From: an uncultured archaeon | Lineage (GTDB): Archaea; Iainarchaeota; Iainarchaeia; Iainarchaeales; CSSED10-239 | DNA: 25,262 bases | Reading direction: 5' to 3' | Assembly (NCBI GenBank): GCA_964496765.1 | Contig: CAZCAP010000011.1 | Coordinates: forward strand, 1-25,262 | In this document: piece after piece, positions 1 to 8,400 of the stretch | Layout: each line of letters begins with the position of its first letter | Position numbering within the stretch: position 1 is the first letter of the stretch | Made by a program: the position numbers and the translations under genes | Notes under the pieces: model-generated | Told to the model about the DNA's origin: nothing | The model's database searches: none | The model's input: only the letters and a program-made list of their open reading frames with translations

Positions 1-83
1 ATAGTAGCCACAAGAATAACTAGGATAATAGATATTATTTCTGAGATACCCCTCCTACTTCTAAACAATTTAGTTACACTCAT
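1..83 (-). CDS. Archaeal type IV pilin-like protein, 5' fragment only (gene runs off the window start)
   Basis: Reverse-strand ATG at 83..81 reads MSVTKLFRSRRGISEIISIILVILVAT. This is a basic stretch, an RG|IS prepilin-type cleavage motif, then a hydrophobic helix, i.e. a class III signal peptide. It closely matches the N-terminus of the 3724..5232 product (KSKRGISEVITIILVILISV). It is truncated, so it is absent from the ORF track. Confidence 0.7.
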   Translation of the reverse strand, partial: MSVTKLFRSRRGISEIISIILVILVAT

Positions 84-130
84 TCCTATCCAACAAAATA
101 GTATATTTTTCCCCTATATTATATGGTAAT

Positions 131-163
131 ATAAAATATAGAACTATTTAAAAATATTATGAT
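131..163 (-). promoter_or_regulatory. Conserved pilin-gene upstream motif containing a TATA-like TTTTTAAATA (copy 1)
   Basis: Plus-strand ATAAAATATAGAACTATTTAAAAATATTATGAT recurs at 3624..3655 and 5286..5318, each upstream of a minus-strand pilin-type start. The core TATTTAAAAATAT also occurs at 15858..15876. A second conserved block, TTCCCCTATATTATAT (108..123), lies 25 nt from the ATG. Confidence 0.45.
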
Positions 164-231
164 GGAGATAAAAAGCTTGCACGAATTAATAATTGAAAAA
201 TATTTGATTTATTCTTAAAAACACAACATCA

Positions 232-300
232 AAAGTGTTCGATACTAACGAAAGCTTTTGACCAAAAGTGTTCGATACTAACGAAAGCTTTAAATATTAA
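232..300 (+). promoter_or_regulatory. 69-bp module, copy A: two tandem 27-bp imperfect palindromes (33-bp spacing) fused to a TTTAAATA TATA box
   Basis: It is 69/69 identical to 1967..2035. The unit AAAGTGTTCGATACTAACGAAAGCTTT occurs at 232..258 and 265..291. Its arms AAAGTGTTCG and CGAAAGCTTT are inverted, with a 7-bp spacer. TTTAAATA at 289..296 matches the archaeal TATA consensus TTTAWATA. Confidence 0.6.
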
Positions 301-534
301 AATTATTTAGCTTAAAGCTCCTCTGAAGTGGATTATAATCTTCTCAATACAATAGTTAATTTAAGATGTTTTTTAACAAGCTATTGAGAGAAATATTTAT
401 TTTTCTAGCTAACTTAATCTATAGCTATATACTAAATATTTGAAAAGAGCTTAATAATTAAATAGGTCTTACTTTTTGGTGTAAAAGATATCAAAAAGGA
501 TACTTTTTTAAACCTTTTTTAACATAAGTGGTGT

Positions 535-1209
535 ATGAAAGCAATTAAATTATTAGAAATATTAAAGTCCTATCCAACTTTCAAATTAATAGATATACAG
601 AGAATCTTAAACTCCAATAGAAACTATGCAAGAACTGTGATAAACAGATTACTTAAACAAAAATATATTTGGAAGGTTTGTCCAGGTATATATACATCTA
701 ACACAATAATAGAAGAAATATCCTCAAATATAGTATATCCTTCATACATTAGTGGATGGTATGCATCTTATCACAAAGGATATACTGATCAAATAGTGAA
801 TAAGATAAATATATTTACTACAATTAAAAAACACCAAATTAAATTTAATAAGTATACAATAAAATTTATTAAAACCCGATATCTGTTTGGGTATGAAAAA
901 ATAAATAATACTTTTATTGCAGATGATAATAAGTTACTCATAGATGCATTACTTCATCCTAAGGAATTTGGTAATTTTGATGAAATAATTAATTTAGTTT
1001 CAAAAGGAGACTTTAACAAAAATAAAATTATATCTTATCTTAAGATAATTAAGAAACAATCAATTATCAAAAAAGTAGGGTATTTATTGGAAAAATATAA
1101 ACAAATAGATATTAGTTCGGGTTTTAAACTCAATAGTAATTATGTGATTTTAAATTCATTTTTAAAAAAATATAATAATACAAACACCAAATGGAGACTT
1201 AAATTATGA
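535..1209 (+). CDS. abiEi: AbiEi-like antitoxin / wHTH transcriptional regulator (type IV TA system)
   Basis: 224 aa. The N-terminal wHTH-like segment ends in the AbiEi-type KVCPGIYTS (G.Y) motif. The gene overlaps the downstream AbiEii-type gene by 4 bp (ATGA, 1206..1209), the canonical abiEi-abiEii arrangement. A TATA-like TTTTTTAAA lies about 25-30 nt upstream of the ATG. Confidence 0.7.
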   Translation: MKAIKLLEILKSYPTFKLIDIQRILNSNRNYARTVINRLLKQKYIWKVCPGIYTSNTIIEEISSNIVYPSYISGWYASYHKGYTDQIVNKINIFTTIKKHQIKFNKYTIKFIKTRYLFGYEKINNTFIADDNKLLIDALLHPKEFGNFDEIINLVSKGDFNKNKIISYLKIIKKQSIIKKVGYLLEKYKQIDISSGFKLNSNYVILNSFLKKYNNTNTKWRLKL

Positions 1210-1946
1210 TTACTAAAGAAGAACTAAAAGAATATTATAATCATTCCCTCTTTAATATTGGACAAGCAGAAAAAGATTATATGCAAAATATTGTGTTGTT
1301 CTGCATATATAGAATATATGCAAATGAGCTTATTTTCAAAGGTGGAACTGCTTTATCAAAATGTTATGGATTAGATAGATTTTCAGAAGACCTTGATTTT
1401 ACTTCTAAAGTTCATTTTAACACAAATAAGTTAAAATCTAAGCTAAAAGCCTTTCAAATAGAGTTTGAACTTGAAGAAAAGGAATTTCAAGAAAAAACAA
1501 CTAAAATCACATTACGAATTTATGGTCCATTATATAATGGGACCAGAAATAGCTTATGCAAAATAATACTAGATATAAGCTATAGGGATAATTTACTTGT
1601 ATCTCCTGAAATTGTAAAGATAATTTCTCAAAGAGAGATACCTTCATTTGATGTTTATGTAATGAACAAAGAAGAAATACTTACTGAGAAATTAAGAGCA
1701 ATAATTATGAGAGATAAAGCAAGAGATGTTTATGATTTATGGTATTTGTTGAAAGCAAAGACAAATATTAATACTAATCTTGTTACAAATAAGTTCTTGT
1801 TTTTCAAAGAGAAGTTTGATATAAAAATATTTAAAAATAGATTATTGGATAAGCAATCAATTTGGGATTCTGAATTATCTGGATTAATATCCAATGTACC
1901 AAATTTCAAAAAGGTTTATAATGAGATTATTGAACAGTTTAAATAA
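1206..1946 (+). CDS. abiEii: AbiEii/AbiGii-family nucleotidyltransferase toxin (DUF1814)
   Basis: 246 aa. FKGGTALSKCYGLDRFSEDLDF is the hallmark nucleotidyltransferase motif of this family. The later block RDKARDVYDLWYL is also typical. A GGAGA SD-like site precedes the start. Confidence 0.85.
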   Translation: MITKEELKEYYNHSLFNIGQAEKDYMQNIVLFCIYRIYANELIFKGGTALSKCYGLDRFSEDLDFTSKVHFNTNKLKSKLKAFQIEFELEEKEFQEKTTKITLRIYGPLYNGTRNSLCKIILDISYRDNLLVSPEIVKIISQREIPSFDVYVMNKEEILTEKLRAIIMRDKARDVYDLWYLLKAKTNINTNLVTNKFLFFKEKFDIKIFKNRLLDKQSIWDSELSGLISNVPNFKKVYNEIIEQFK

Positions 1947-1966
1947 ATTATTAAAAGTAGGAACTC

Positions 1967-2035
1967 AAAGTGTTCGATACTAACGAAAGCTTTTGACCAA
2001 AAGTGTTCGATACTAACGAAAGCTTTAAATATTAA
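1967..2035 (+). promoter_or_regulatory. 69-bp module, copy B: likely operator plus promoter of the ATPase gene
   Basis: Perfect copy of 232..300. The TATA box TTTAAATA at 2024..2031 lies about 31-38 nt upstream of ATG 2062, which fits a leaderless or very short-leader archaeal transcript. Confidence 0.6.
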
Positions 2036-2061
2036 TCTAATCATTATATTTATGATAATAT

Positions 2062-3333
2062 ATGATAACAAAGGAAGAATTAAAGAAAATAATTCAAGAT
2101 CAAAAGGAAAGTTTTAATAATAACCAGACATACATAACTAGAAATATATCACTTGATGAATATATAAAGACAGATCCAATTATAATTATAAGTGGAGTTA
2201 GAAGGTGTGGTAAATCTACACTTCTAAAAATTATAAAAGAAAAAATAATTAAAAATAATAAAAATATTAATTACTTATATTGCGATTTCTCTGATGAAAG
2301 ACTTAGCAGTTTAACAGTTTCAAATTTACAAACAATCTACGAAATATTTTTAGAAAAATATGAACCAGGAAAAAAATATTTCTTTTTTGATGAAATCCAG
2401 TATGTAACTGGTTGGGAAAAATTCGTAAATAGATTATATGAAAAAGAAAACGCAAAAATATTCATTACTGGATCAAATGGATCTTTACTTAGTTCAGAAA
2501 TCTCTACCGTTTTAACCGGAAGAAACAAAGTAATAGAACTTTATCCTTTCTCATTTAAAGAATATATAACCACAAAAAAAGAAGTAATAGACATAAAAAA
2601 CTTATCAACTAAAGAAACCATTAAATTAAATAAATATTTTGATAATTATTTCAAGATAGGTGGATTCCCATATGTAGTAAACACTGGTGACACTCAAATA
2701 TTAAAAGAATATTATACAAATATAATTTATAAAGATATAATTAACAGAAAGAAAATAAGACAAGTAAAAGAAATAAAGGAAATAATTTCATTTCTATCAA
2801 ATAATATAGGGCAAACTGTATCATATAATAAAATAATAGATAACTCAAAAATTAAAAGTACAAGTACAATTAAAAACTATATAGATTATCTTAATGAAGC
2901 GTACATTTTATTCACTTTACCTAAATATGATAAATCAATTAGAAAACAAATACAAAATCCAAAAAAAGTATATTTTATTGATATAGGAATGGTAAGACAA
3001 ATAAGTGTTAATTTTTCAGAAAATAATGGATGGTACCTTGAAAATATAGTATTTTTAGAATTATTAAGAAGAAATAAAGAAATATATTATCATAAAAATG
3101 GAAAAGAATGTGATTTTATAATGAAAGAAGGTACAAAGATTAAAGAAGCTATACAAGTATCCTATGAAATAAATAGAAAAAATGAAGACAGAGAAATTGA
3201 AGGATTAATTAGTGCATTAAAAACACATTGTCTTAAAGAAGGGACAATTATAACAAAAGAGCAAGAAGAAATAAGAACAATAGGCAAATATAAAATTAAA
3301 ATAATTCCAATAACCAAGTGGTTATTAGAATAA
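2062..3333 (+). CDS. AAA_14 + DUF4143 family ATPase (COG1373-like)
   Basis: 423 aa. Walker A is GVRRCGKST and the Walker B-like block is KYFFFDEIQY. Overall length and the C-terminal block ENIVFLELLRRN...ECDFIM...IQVSY are typical of this archaeal/bacterial ATPase family. Confidence 0.8.
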   Translation: MITKEELKKIIQDQKESFNNNQTYITRNISLDEYIKTDPIIIISGVRRCGKSTLLKIIKEKIIKNNKNINYLYCDFSDERLSSLTVSNLQTIYEIFLEKYEPGKKYFFFDEIQYVTGWEKFVNRLYEKENAKIFITGSNGSLLSSEISTVLTGRNKVIELYPFSFKEYITTKKEVIDIKNLSTKETIKLNKYFDNYFKIGGFPYVVNTGDTQILKEYYTNIIYKDIINRKKIRQVKEIKEIISFLSNNIGQTVSYNKIIDNSKIKSTSTIKNYIDYLNEAYILFTLPKYDKSIRKQIQNPKKVYFIDIGMVRQISVNFSENNGWYLENIVFLELLRRNKEIYYHKNGKECDFIMKEGTKIKEAIQVSYEINRKNEDREIEGLISALKTHCLKEGTIITKEQEEIRTIGKYKIKIIPITKWLLE

Positions 3334-3506
3334 TATTCATTGTTTTAACTTAAAGGTTAAGTCACCCCTGGCAGAAGGTTATTTCTTCAATGTAATTAAG
3401 AAATGCACCTACTTTTTAACATTGGAATTGACAAAAATATTTTTAAACACAACCAATATATTGGTTATATAAAATACTTATAAACTTAACCAACACATAT
3501 AATTAT

Positions 3507-3577
3507 TTATATACCTAAAATGATTGTTATTACTTCAGAAATCCCCTATTATTTTTAAATAATTTAGTTATACTCAT
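3507..3577 (-). pseudogene. Decayed stub of a pilin paralog (signal peptide only, frameshifted and truncated)
   Basis: Reverse ATG at 3577..3575 reads MSITKLFKNNRGFLK*. Restoring one nucleotide after GG (compare GGTATCTCAGAA in copy 1) gives ...RGISEVITIILGI*. That matches the prepilin N-termini at 1..83 and 3724..5232. The conserved promoter block follows at 3603..3655. Confidence 0.65.
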
Positions 3578-3623
3578 TCATATCCAGTAAAGTAGTTATA
3601 TATTCCCCTATATTATATGTTAA

Positions 3624-3655
3624 TATAAAACATAGAACTATTAAAAATATTATGA
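3624..3655 (-). promoter_or_regulatory. Conserved pilin-gene upstream motif (copy 2, serving the pilin stub)
   Basis: ATAAAACATAGAACTATTAAAAATATTATGAT aligns with 131..163 and 5286..5318. The adjacent TTCCCCTATATTATAT at 3603..3618 is identical to 108..123. Confidence 0.4.
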
Positions 3656-3723
3656 TAGGGGAAATTAAAAATAAAATTTATTAACACACTATATTTAGAA
3701 AATAAGAGATTGAATAGATGTTT

Positions 3724-5232
3724 TTAAAAAGATCTAACACATCTTATCCGCATGTTTTCAATTTTATTATAAAAATTAATTTCATCAGCATAAAAAACCC
3801 AATTATAATGATACAGATTGCTATATTCTGAAGATGTTGCATAATATCCAAGATTAGTAAACCCACCAATGGCAGCTCTATTTAAATAAAATTGGCGGAA
3901 TTCATATAAACTTGGTAAATACCAATCAGTATATCCATTTAAACTCAGATTATCACAAGTTCTTGCAGCAATTCCAGCAGTAGCACAACCATTTAAAATA
4001 TCTGTTGTATTTTGTTGCCCGGTTCCAATTGCTGTTCCATCTGCACCACTTAAAGCTGTTCCGCTACAACCCCATGGAGATTGAGTTTGATCGCTTGTTG
4101 GAGCTATTAAACCATGTTGTACTCCTGCATTATAACCAGCATCACCGGATTGTAAAATATAGGCAATAATTCCACCCTGGTAACTCATACCAATGGAAAG
4201 AGGAGTTATAGTATATGTTCCAGTGTATACAGAACTATTCGTATATCCACTCTTTGTAGCTATTGCTTTCAATGTTGTTGTTGAACCAATACTTATTGGA
4301 GAGGAATAAACTGAACTTCCTGTTGTTGGTGTACTTCCATCTGTTGTATAATAAATTGTTGAACCAGAAGTTGTTGAACTTAAGGTTACACTTTGAGCAG
4401 TTGTAAATGCACCTGCTTCGAGTGAAGCAACAGGAGTTGATAATTGATGTGTAACAACATAGGTTGCAGTATATACAGGACTTGGTGCATAACCAGGCTT
4501 AACTGCAATTGTTTTAATAGTTGTTGTTGAGTCTTCTGGAAGAGAGATTAAATCTCCAGAATACACACTACTTTCAGTGGTTGGTGTTGAGCCATCGGTT
4601 GTGTAATAAATGGTTGCACCATCTGGTGAAGATAAAACAAGATCTTGAGATTCATAATAATTATCTTCTGTTAAAGAAAAAATAGGATAGGAAACAACAG
4701 GAACTTCTCCTGAACAACCAGATAAGCTTATTGCTTGATTAGGACAAGTTTTATTTGTTAAAATCATACTTTCTATTTGATCAAAATCTAAAGATGCAAC
4801 AACATAATTTTCCTTAATAACATCAAATGAATCAAGAGTTGTATTTAATTCTTTAAACTCTCCTCTCTTAACCACATCATCAAAATAACCAACATAGGTA
4901 ATATCTTCTCCAGTAAATGTTTTTGATTTAACAGATAAAGTAAATCCACCATAATCTAAAGAAGTGCTATTAATTAGATTTATTGAAAATTCTTTAGTAC
5001 CAGTATTAATTGAACAGGATTCAACCTTAAGATTACTGTTTGCACAATCAAGCTCACTTCCCTTTGTAAAAGCACGACTTGCATTAGAAGAAGTATCTAA
5101 ACTCTTTTTAGTTATGTTTTTTCCATAGGCTAAAAAAGTTGCGATTAGAATAACACTAATAAGTATGACTAGGATGATTGTAATAACTTCCGAGATCCCC
5201 CTCTTACTCTTAACTAGTTTTTTTAGATTCAT
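3724..5232 (-). CDS. Pilin-like surface protein: class III signal peptide, Cys-containing N-domain, two CHB_HEX_C/Fn3-associated-like repeats, and a DUF1566 (Lcl C-terminal-like) head
   Basis: 502 aa. The N-terminus is MNLKKLVKSKRG|ISEVITIILVILISVILIATFLAYG. There are two ~80-aa repeats with the signature G(A/S)TIYYTTDGSTPT...SSVYS...T(I/L)K(T/A)IA.K.GY. The C-terminus (aa ~347-502) reads GGIIAYI...HGLIA...WGC...IGTGQQNT..IL...AA..C..L.LNGYTDWYLPSLYEF...RCVRSF, the DUF1566 pattern. Confidence 0.85.
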   Translation of the reverse strand: MNLKKLVKSKRGISEVITIILVILISVILIATFLAYGKNITKKSLDTSSNASRAFTKGSELDCANSNLKVESCSINTGTKEFSINLINSTSLDYGGFTLSVKSKTFTGEDITYVGYFDDVVKRGEFKELNTTLDSFDVIKENYVVASLDFDQIESMILTNKTCPNQAISLSGCSGEVPVVSYPIFSLTEDNYYESQDLVLSSPDGATIYYTTDGSTPTTESSVYSGDLISLPEDSTTTIKTIAVKPGYAPSPVYTATYVVTHQLSTPVASLEAGAFTTAQSVTLSSTTSGSTIYYTTDGSTPTTGSSVYSSPISIGSTTTLKAIATKSGYTNSSVYTGTYTITPLSIGMSYQGGIIAYILQSGDAGYNAGVQHGLIAPTSDQTQSPWGCSGTALSGADGTAIGTGQQNTTDILNGCATAGIAARTCDNLSLNGYTDWYLPSLYEFRQFYLNRAAIGGFTNLGYYATSSEYSNLYHYNWVFYADEINFYNKIENMRIRCVRSF

Positions 5233-5285
5233 TCATTATTCATTAGTATTTTATATTTATTATAAAATATATATTATCTATTAAA

Positions 5286-5318
5286 ATAAAACATAGAAGT
5301 ATTTAAAAATATTTGGAT
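5286..5318 (-). promoter_or_regulatory. Conserved pilin-gene upstream motif (copy 3, upstream of 3724..5232)
   Basis: ATAAAACATAGAAGTATTTAAAAATATTTGGAT aligns with copies at 131..163 and 3624..3655. It lies about 55-85 nt upstream of ATG 5232. Confidence 0.45.
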
Positions 5319-5452
5319 GAATTAAAATTTTAAAAAAATAATATAATCTATGGATTAATCAATTTTATTCATAAACAATCGTTTAAATAAATAGACACTA
5401 AATTTAAAAACTAAAAAAAATTAATTAAGATAATCTAAAATGGGTTTTATGA

Positions 5453-8400
5453 TTATCCTGTGCTAGGTGGTACAACAGTTATAGATTGTAATTCCAAGAC
5501 ACCAGAACCAGAACCATAGAAATAAGGACTAACTCCACCATATGATCCAGCCCATTGATTAACCCAAGTTACATTTCCACTTGCATATGGGAATGGTGGA
5601 CGACTACCATAACCATCAGCTAAACAATGAAATGATGCACCTCCATTATCTACACCCACACAATAGGTTGTATTCGGACTAAGCACATAATTAATATTCA
5701 CTTCTGTTGTATTGGTAATTGGAGCAGATGCTAAATTTGGACCAGTACAAGAACCAGCACGTAGGAATCCATGAGTAGGCGATGTTCCCCATTGATTACT
5801 TGCAATCTTAATCTGAGTTATCTTTAATGTTTCACTACTTGTAGTAAAAGTGTCACCACATTCTTGGACCCCCAGTGCACCTCCATTAACACTTGGCCAA
5901 TATGGATTTGTTCCTCTCATTTCTTGTACAACCGGTGTTCCCCAGTCCTGCTGAACACAATATAATGCACATGAAAAACCACATACTCCTCCAGCCATAT
6001 TCCATAACCAACCACCTTCTTTGTGATCTAAACAATCTAGTGAACCTAATATACCAGATGTACTTGATGTCCAACTATTACAATTAAATCCAGAATATGA
6101 TCCGCCAGTTAGATTATCACCTGTACAAACATATCCTGTTTGAGTAGTTCCTGTTTCAGTAATACTAAAGTTTGCTTTTAGATTTCCATAGGTGTGCCCT
6201 GTCCAGAAATCAGCCCAATTATCAGCAATGGTAACTCCATCTAATCTTTTATATGGCACTGATGAATGTGAAAATCTAGAGGTTACTGAAGTTGATTCAC
6301 TGCTCAACCATGCCTTATATGCACCAGGTAATCCAGCAGCCGTTGCTGCTGCTTGACACTTTGCATCAGCTCCAGCCAATCCACCAAGGGTTGCACCAGT
6401 CCATTTGGATGCAGTAACAAACACATATTTAGAGCTTGCAGTATCTGTAAATAAAGGATACTTAATTATTACTATACCTGAACCACCATTAGCTCCTCCT
6501 GTTCCACCATATCTACTACCACCAGCACCACCACCACCAGTGTTTGCTACACCAGCATAGGCAGTCAAAGTTACTGAATCATGATTACCTCCACCACCAG
6601 TACCACCTGGATAAACAGCAGATCCATAATAATAAGATCCTGCACCACCACCAGCAAACCAACCTGCTGGAGACCCACCTACACTTGAAAATTGAGAATA
6701 TTGTAATCCATCTCCACCAGTAAATGGTCCATCAGTCATACCAGCTTCTGAAGCACCACCACCACCACCGCCATAAACACCGCTACCATATGAACCAGCA
6801 TATCCTTGTCCAGATACTCCACTTCCACCAGAACTTTGTGCAGAGCTTCCATCAGCTGCTCCTCCACCTCCACCAGAACCACCAGCACTACCAGGCATAT
6901 AACTCCCACCTCCACCAGCACCACCACCAATTGCAGTTAAAGTTCCGAAAATACTATTACCACCATTTGTTCCAGGACCAGCAGTATAATATGGAGTAGA
7001 CCCAATACCACCAGCACCAACAGTAACTGGATAGGCCTGAGCACTTACAGCAACGTAATCATACAATAATCCTCCGGCTCCTCCACCACCACCTCTGTGT
7101 CCTGATCCTCCGCCTCCACCACCAGCAACAACTAATGCCTCAACAGCACCAGAGAAGGTTGGGGTGAATGTTCCATTTGATGTAAATGTACTAATACAAT
7201 AATTTCCACTTACTGTTATTGTTCCTCCAGTAGCAGGACAAACTTTATAGGTTCCTGAATAAACACCACTATTTGCATACCCACTTTTAACAGCTATTGC
7301 TTTCAAGGTTGTAGTTGCATTTAATGTGATTGCTCCAGAATATAATGTACTCCCTGTTGTTGGAGTATCTCCATTAGTAGTATAATAAATTGTTGAACCT
7401 GCTTCTCCTGATAGAGTTATGTTTTGTGGAGTTGAATAATCACCAGCAACTGGTGAAGTTGTTGGTGTTGATAAAGTGTGTGTGACTGTAAAGGTACCTG
7501 AATAAACTTCACTATCTGCATATCCATTCTTTACAGAATATGCTTTTATTGTTGTTGTTGTATCAAGTGGAACAGAGATTGCTCCTGAATATAATGTACT
7601 TCCTGTGGTTGGTGTACTTCCATTAGTAGTATAATAAATTGTTGAACCTACTTCTCCAGATAAAGTCACACTTTGAGCAGAAGTGAATGAGCCAGCGGAA
7701 GGTGATGCAACAGGAGTTGATAACTGATGTGTGGTTGTGTAAACTCCACCAGAATATACTGCACTATCTCCATAACCTTCTTTAACTGAGAATGCTTTAA
7801 GTGTTATTGTTGTGTCTCCAGGAACAGAAATTCCTGTTGAATAAACAGAACTTCCAGTAGTTGGATCAGAACCATCAGTTGTATAATATGTTGTTGAACC
7901 TTCTTCAGTTGATAATGTAATTGTTTGAGCTGAAGTGAAATTTCCTGCAGCAGGAGAAGCACTTGGAGTTGCAAGAGTGTGAGTGATTGTAAATGTTCCT
8001 GAATATATAGGACTATCCCCATAACCACTCTTAACTGCTAATGCTTTAATATTCATGATTGTATCAATAGGAACATTAATTGCACTTGAATAAACTGAAC
8101 TTTCTGTGGTTGGATCTGAACCATCAGTAGTGTAATAAATTGTTGAACCTGCTTCTCCAGATAAGGTTACATCTTGAGCAGCATAAACAAAAGTACCAGC
8201 AACAGGAGATGCAACAGGAGTTGCAAGTATATGGGTTGTAGTAAAGTCACCAGAATAGATAGCACTATCTCCATAACCACTCTTAACTGAAAGAGCTTTA
8301 ATTGTCATACTTGAATCTATTGGAATTGAAATTGGGTCAGAATAAACATCATCAGTTATTGTTGGATCTATCCCATTAGTAGTATAATAAATTGTTGAAC

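Follow-up and report, generated by a model that had tools for sequence, protein, structure and literature searches.

Archaeal repressors with sites over the transcription factor B recognition element (BRE) or the TATA box, for example MDR1, LrpA and Phr, block the TATA-binding protein (TBP) and transcription factor B (TFB). In the AbiE toxin-antitoxin system of Streptococcus agalactiae, the characterized operator of the winged-helix repressor AbiEi lies inside its own promoter and comprises a pair of 23-bp repeats in inverted orientation, separated by 3 bp, to each of which one monomer binds (PMC7319586). The PDC-S01 family, in which an ATPase is fused to a PD-(D/E)XK domain (PMC12988326, PMC3424549), is a single-gene phage-defence candidate that still awaits experimental validation; it is very common, reportedly ranking fourth among defence candidates across prokaryotes, and shows enrichment in Archaea (PMC12988326). 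Literature searches found no published cognate two-site operator or autoregulation for this family. The stretch analyzed here (the window) is a whole contig of 25,262 nucleotides from the small, AT-rich genome (G000; 737,780 bp, 86% complete) of an uncultured archaeon of the Iainarchaeales. It carries two identical 69-bp modules, designated A and B, one on each side of an AbiE gene pair, and module B leads into a gene for a PDC-S01 ATPase. We consider it probable that the module is the cognate, probably autoregulatory, two-site operator of the ATPase gene and that its second copy has been orphaned.

Positions 232–300 and 1967–2035 match at 69/69 positions, as the initial annotation had claimed, and the match breaks at 231/1966 and at 301/2036. 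Each module contains two copies of the 27-mer AAAGTGTTCGATACTAACGAAAGCTTT, which start at 232, 265, 1967 and 2000 and are spaced 33 bp apart in each pair. No further copy with up to 3 mismatches was found in the window (0 expected, 100 shuffles) or in the 737,780-bp genome, so that the genome search called for at the outset gave four units in total, all within the two modules. An exact 21-mer scan of genome contigs gave no match, and neither did an Rfam scan of positions 1–4000 (E <= 1); degenerate 18-mer scans returned mostly chance matches in GC-richer bacteria, and only AT-rich archaeal contigs with paired matches were kept. The arms of the unit, AAAGTGTTCG and CGAAAGCTTT, are symmetric at 8 of 10 positions, the count given originally, but the bases between them, which had been described as a spacer, are also symmetric, and the near-perfect 15-bp palindrome TTCGaTA-C-TAaCGAA is a better description of the dyad core of each unit. 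The center of the proximal dyad is ~14 bp upstream of the center of the TATA box, its right half-site overlaps a BRE-like CGAAAGC, and the TATA box of module B starts (at 2024) 38 nt before the ATG of the ATPase gene. The expected transcription start falls in the sequence ATTTATGAT, which is found in the window, in P0002, P0003, L056 and G019, and in the promoter stubs of L072 and G001 C42. Two candidate explanations for such repeats were rejected: a generic promoter or miniature inverted-repeat transposable element, in view of the four genomic copies and the presence of the motif in 3/196 genomes of the order, and an origin of replication, in view of direct repeats that abut a TATA box, a paralog-specific pattern and the involvement of no gene of the Orc1 family.

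Nine loci encoding orthologs of the window ATPase (designated the ATPase1 clade) were recovered, with protein identities to the window ranging from 100% to 60%. All nine have two units with a spacing of exactly 33 bp and a second unit that runs into the TATA box, and the distance from TATA box to ATG is a constant 38 nt wherever the TATA box is TTTAAATA. The geometry first proposed for the window, dyad-type sites of which the second lies over the BRE and TATA box of a near-leaderless ATPase promoter, is thus kept in every recovered ortholog. In the more distant orthologs the dyad is the perfect GTTCG-N7-CGAAC, as GTTCGATACCAACGAAC and GTTCGTTACTATCGAAC, which appears to be the ancestral form, and both G019 units differ from those of the window by the same two substitutions (ATACTAA to TTACTAT). 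Among the 196 genomes of the order, the core motif occurs in G000, G001 and G019 only, and any gene that follows it is an ATPase gene. The neighbors vary at almost every ortholog locus and include AbiEii, an S-layer-like gene, other ATPases, a pilin-like giant gene and a reverse transcriptase that derives from a retroelement; no gene besides the ATPase gene is constant across these loci. Most of them have no AbiE nearby, and the module and ATPase gene occur together without AbiE in L056, L142 and L151. In the sister genome G001, which has no close ATPase1, the 27-bp units have decayed. Two of the loci have further features. In L151 / L152, the 64% ortholog with its two-unit operator is back to back with a diversity-generating retroelement comprising RVT_1, bAvd and a LamG/FGE-sulfatase target gene. 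In L142 (1–7911), four DUF4143/AAA_14 ATPase genes are arranged in tandem on one strand, with TTCTTGCTATNTGACTAGATT in the first three of the four intergenic regions.

The same layout, with other sequences, is found at paralogous ATPase genes. The regions upstream of 34 ATPase genes from this archaeal family and from metagenomes were compared with 369 control regions from the genome of the window, a direct repeat being scored when it matched at >=16/20 positions with a spacing of 26–42 bp. Such repeats are present in 41% of the ATPase upstream regions versus 1.6% of the controls (Mann-Whitney p = 2e-6); in the former, the spacing is nearly always exactly 33 bp and the repeats end 32–46 nt before the ATG, whereas controls with high scores consist of poly-A/T tracts or belong to the ATPase gene of the window itself. 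Each paralog clade has its own unit sequence, and each of these is internally palindromic, for example TTGTCA-N7-TGACAA, TTTCCTT-N5-AAGGAAA, GGATT-N3-AATCC and TGTGCA...TGCACA. Four such ATPases, with three operator types, are encoded in the genome of the window. DUF4143 ATPases are abundant in these reduced genomes, from the four in 0.74 Mb to as many as 13 matches in a 1.2-Mb relative, and at least one is present in 88/151 sampled genomes of the phylum. In L072 (3440–3500, minus strand), the ATPase gene that follows the module has a variant unit pair of its own (TTCG-N10-CGAAAG), with a wider dyad and a spacing of 32 bp, ahead of a second TATA box.

The ATPase is a full-length match to PADLOC family PDC-S01 (PDLC04787, COG1373; 7.5e-119), with the AAA_14 P-loop followed by DUF4143 that it shares with this family; its Walker A sequence is GVRRCGKST and its Walker B sequence is FFFDEIQ. 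A confident AlphaFold2 model based on an alignment of 53 homologs (predicted local distance difference test score, 90.2) comprises an AAA+ domain (residues 38–170), a lid, a winged helix (residues 235–305, with the recognition helix at 267–279) and a PD-(D/E)XK-like domain (residues 322–400) modeled as alpha-beta-beta-beta-alpha-beta. The initial annotation had likened the C terminus to a nuclease, and both the placement of DUF4143 in the PD-(D/E)XK superfamily (PMC3424549) and the model agree with that assignment. Residues Glu327, Glu349, Asp351 and Gln365 are invariant in the 53 homologs and are located in the model on the expected helix and strands, but the lysine position of the (D/E)xK motif is occupied by Ser367, which is variable among homologs. 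This Gln365-Val-Ser367 sequence, which lacks the canonical (D/E)xK lysine, makes nuclease activity uncertain; the domain may have a variant site or no activity at all. Sequence searches of the PDB with the ATPase and with AbiEi gave nothing useful. By fold, the best PDB match is Orc1/Cdc6 on origin DNA (2qby_A, E = 1.5e-8; TM-scores, 0.33–0.37), and STAND-type defence NTPases are also among the matches. The modeled ATPase has the AAA+/lid/winged-helix order of Orc1/Cdc6, whose genes, like that of the window ATPase, are beside repeated dyad-containing sites. However, it belongs to AAA_14 rather than Cdc6 and has an extra nuclease-like domain, the TM-scores are low, the sites in the window are direct repeats that abut a TATA box rather than inverted boxes around an unwinding element, and there are four paralogs per genome.

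We propose that two dyad-symmetric operators, three helical turns apart, would control this clade of AAA_14/DUF4143 (PDC-S01) ATPase genes. The ATPase would bind both sites through its winged-helix domain and repress its own transcription by blocking TFB and TBP. In this near-leaderless promoter the promoter-proximal operator lies over the BRE and directly against the TATA box. Copy B would be the native working promoter of the window ATPase, and copy A a second operator pair retained beside the pilin promoter, heading the stub of a paralog, with AbiE next. The proximal dyad has the TBP/TFB-blocking position of the sites of MDR1, LrpA and Phr, but the presumed binder would be a 423-residue AAA+ ATPase-nuclease and not a small dedicated regulator. 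The predicted recognition helix is constant across the ATPase1 clade (IKSTSTIKN[Y/F]I[D/E]YL) and shifts between clades alongside the operator type, and two subclades with GSTHTAKKYVSYL both have TGCACA half-sites.

Several observations weigh against autoregulation by the ATPase. (i) The pairing of helix and operator is the pattern expected of an autoregulator, yet it is confounded by common descent. (ii) Residues Lys265, Ser266, Ser268 and Lys271 are invariant or nearly so across homologs that must have different operators. (iii) The orthologs at 86% and 83% identity have a degenerate left half-site and retain just ATCGAAAGCTTT, so the conservation could partly reflect the BRE/TATA core alone. 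(iv) Copy A is strictly kept in L072 and L067, although another ATPase gene, with variant units, follows it there, and simple autoregulation offers no explanation for this. (v) In a wider sample of the phylum, repeats were found at 5/19 DUF4143 genes versus 1/39 controls; the pattern held only in part, and the two-unit arrangement is therefore claimed for this subfamily only.

The second and fourth of these points, the recognition-helix residues that are invariant among homologs with different operators and the copy A that is kept where no ATPase1 gene follows, speak for a host transcription factor, and not the ATPase, as the binder of the units, which would still be the operator pair of the ATPase promoter. 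We nevertheless regard such a factor as unlikely. With four paralogs and three operator types in a 0.74-Mb genome, a dedicated factor would be needed for each type, and there is no conserved neighboring regulator gene at the ortholog loci or the other loci inspected.

The history of copy A bears on a different explanation, in which the modules are recombination sites (att-like sites or cassette boundaries) for the exchange of defence genes and the 69-bp identity is the footprint of an event. In this form it is a decidedly doubtful account. To the right of copy A there is no cassette end. Positions 268–400 are 90% identical to contig C108 of G001, in which a single unit, now decayed, is followed by a TATA box and the same ~100-nt leader, which leads directly into the gene for an ATPase 46% identical to that of the window, and the flanks of C108 are syntenic with those of the window. 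The end of the leader is the proximal promoter motif ATTGAGAGAAATATTTATATA, which it shares with another gene of the ATPase2 clade (G019 C1). Because of the leader match and this ATPase2-type motif, positions 301–405 are interpreted as the promoter stub of a lost paralog. The interval 301–534 is composite, with the stub at 301–405, a segment at 406–448 for which no relative was found, and the AbiE cassette from 449; in other genomes the cassette corresponds to 449–1990 only and its homology stops within a unit. The module itself is joined to at least four different sequences on its left and to three on its right, and homology stops sharply at its borders, but the identity of the two copies needs no recent event because 63 of the 69 bases are invariant across genomes: the module is identical at 63/63 positions in L072 and L067, where the left flanks are 83–84% identical, and in the last six bases the sole difference between window copy A and the A-type copy of G001 is T/C in the TATA box. 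On contig L061, the left flank of A and the module are joined to ~10 nt of the right flank of B, a junction that appears as expected from recombination between copies A and B, and ordinary homologous recombination between identical promoters suffices to explain it. The nuclease-like domain of the ATPase would suit an exchange mechanism; no integrase, transposase or resolvase, however, is encoded among the 20 open reading frames (ORFs) of the window or in the related loci inspected.

The initial annotation had offered a version of this explanation, in which the repeats are attL/attR-like scars of an AbiE cassette. The single modules directly before ATPase orthologs and the L061 junction make this idea right in part, and the islet is rearranged at the modules, but the scars do not fit: with a paralog stub after copy A and no recombinase in the window, the copies are better described as duplicated or orphaned ATPase promoters. 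Copy A, on the comparisons above, appears to be an orphaned operator/promoter of the ATPase type beside the divergent pilin promoter. The simplest history would begin with an ancestral array of pilin promoter, [module-leader-ATPase2], [AbiE], [module-ATPase1] and pilin stub, from which the window would have dropped the ATPase2 coding region and G001 C108 would have dropped AbiE and ATPase1. Arrays of this kind are present in L149 and L147. On the plus strand, tracts of T5–T6 follow copy A at 369, 400, 473, 504 and 515, and a transcript from ~320 would probably end before abiEi. The presumed transcript (316–376) has no predicted structure (z = +0.99), which gives no support for a small structured RNA made from copy A.

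The first hypothesis of the initial annotation, a three-gene module in which AbiEi would occupy the 27-bp units and so control both abiE and the ATPase gene, is in our view very unlikely. In the window, the AbiE cassette does have units on both sides, abiEii is likewise followed by a unit in L072 and G001 C42, and a single islet often contains both an AbiE pair and a DUF4143 ATPase gene (L147, L149). The gap between abiEii and the ATPase gene also contains no T5 or longer tract, and read-through would therefore be possible. The module nevertheless goes with the ATPase gene: it occurs with it in the three loci without AbiE named above, and paralogous ATPases without AbiE show the two-unit layout too. 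The conserved linkage of AbiE and ATPase envisaged earlier is missing from most ortholog loci. In G001 C42 and in the metagenome contig L072, the AbiE cassette is 92% identical to that of the window over 1540 nt in different contexts; in G001, AbiEi is intact and 94% identical, whereas only one unit, in degraded form (AGAGTATTCGATACTAACGAAAAC), is left after abiEii. The 27-bp units are outside the abiE core promoter, copy A being ~215–235 nt upstream of the abiEi ATG and copy B downstream of abiEii. They are palindromes repeated in direct orientation with a spacing of 33 bp, unlike the inverted pair over the core promoter in S. agalactiae (PMC7319586). That pattern is better fitted by a separate palindrome at 483–508, AAAAGATATC-AAAAAG-GATACTTTTT, which overlaps the TATA-like TTTTTTAAAC (504–513), 26 nt before the ATG at 535. 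It is present at five AbiE loci (window, G001 C42, L072, G019 and G015) that represent two AbiEi subtypes, even in G019, whose AbiEi is merely 36% identical to that of the window. In the G001 copy two bases have changed symmetrically (GGTATC...GATACC), which preserves the dyad, and the palindrome is the sole perfect match in genome G001 and likewise in G019. It is likely to be the AbiEi operator, and AbiE forms a separate unit with its own promoter and palindrome. With the S. agalactiae system the window shares an AbiEi/AbiEii pair and, in the arrangement proposed here, a winged-helix protein that would repress from paired repeats over a core promoter.

Past the unit that follows abiEii, L072 (1–260) and L020 (G001 C42; 4700–4871, minus strand) share a second unit, which has decayed, a TATA box and ATTTATGAT; these precede a 13-codon ORF, MIA[S/R]KLFYCYCFC, conserved in both, and next a cysteine-synthase-like gene, of whose 3' end L072 has a further 50-nt copy upstream of AbiE. 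The likeness of this flank to module B and the 5' end of the ATPase gene is suggestive only (p = 0.02–0.06 versus shuffles).

Misjoining of strain variants (module-AbiE and module-ATPase) through the repeat during assembly can be set aside as extremely improbable: the window contig and contig L140 do both end in or near repeats, but an ENA contig (63.9 kb) and a Joint Genome Institute contig (63.85 kb), both assembled by other pipelines from other samples, match window positions 1–6000 at 100% identity and contain both modules, and a third contig runs from abiEi through the ATPase gene, so the duplication is real.

The features of the islet and the ortholog loci are listed below. The islet lies where a type IV pilus locus ends, with the start and promoter of a pilin-like gene on its left and a decayed copy of these on its right (83% identity between 49–163 and 3543–3656). 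The pilin-like gene encodes 356 residues in longer assemblies and is complete in L138/L139. The product of 535–1209 has no Pfam match; its gene overlaps abiEii by 4 nt (1206–1209), and the two have the features of a bicistronic AbiE toxin-antitoxin (type IV) pair.

Features of the islet in the window and loci encoding ATPase1 orthologs
Feature	Position	Strand	Description
Pilin-like gene, 5' end	1–83	-	ATG at 83–81, MSVTKLFRSRRGISE..., runs off contig end; read from sequence
Module A	232–300	+	Units 232–258 and 265–291; dyad cores TTCGATACTAACGAA; TATA box TTTAAATA at 289–296
Putative upstream stub of lost paralog (ATPase2 clade)	301–405	+	Ends in decayed proximal TATA box ATTGAGAGAAATATTTATTTTT
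AbiE cassette	449–1990	+	Promoter of its own, both abiE genes and unit 1 of module B
abiEi-proximal palindrome	483–508	+	GATATC-N6-GATAYC type; candidate AbiEi operator
abiEi	535–1209	+	224 residues; PADLOC AbiEi 2.4e-29, full length (residues 3–223)
abiEii	1206–1946	+	246 residues; DUF1814 nucleotidyltransferase; Pfam PF08843 2e-33; PADLOC AbiEii 4.7e-69
Module B	1967–2035	+	Units 1967–1993 and 2000–2026; BRE-like CGAAAGC at 2017–2023; TATA box TTTAAATA at 2024–2031
Conserved ATTTATGAT	2047–2055	+	Expected transcription start, ~25 nt past TATA box
ATPase gene (AAA_14 + DUF4143)	2062–3333	+	423 residues; PF13173 4.5e-38, PF13635 4.3e-23
Decayed pilin promoter and 5' end	3531–3656	-	Frameshifted stub; direct-repeat partner of 49–163
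Ortholog locus, window			100% protein identity
Ortholog locus, P0002 / L142			86% protein identity to window
Ortholog locus, P0003 / L146			83% protein identity to window
Ortholog locus, G019 / L147			80% protein identity to window
Ortholog locus, L056			79% protein identity to window
Ortholog locus, P0010 / L148			73% protein identity to window
Ortholog locus, P0012 / L149			71% protein identity to window
Ortholog locus, P0013 / L151			64% protein identity to window
Ortholog locus, G001 C65			60% protein identity to window

A broader proposal, which we put forward as speculation and think improbable as it stands, is that PDC-S01 ATPases would be sequence-specific, Orc1/Cdc6-like binders of site pairs at their own genes, and that identical pairs located elsewhere, such as copy A, would let one ATPase control neighboring defence genes such as abiE and, together with the nuclease-like domain, could be the breakpoints at which defence cassettes are shuffled in the islet. 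For annotation, the locus calls for caution, in that shared repeats alone do not make neighboring defence genes one system: in this case a single gene family accounts for the repeats, and the second copy appears to be a leftover. The combination of a conserved, clade-specific dyad pair with a confidently modeled winged helix poses a concrete question, whether the ATPase binds its own promoter, and the module offers a defined DNA ligand for structural work on PDC-S01.

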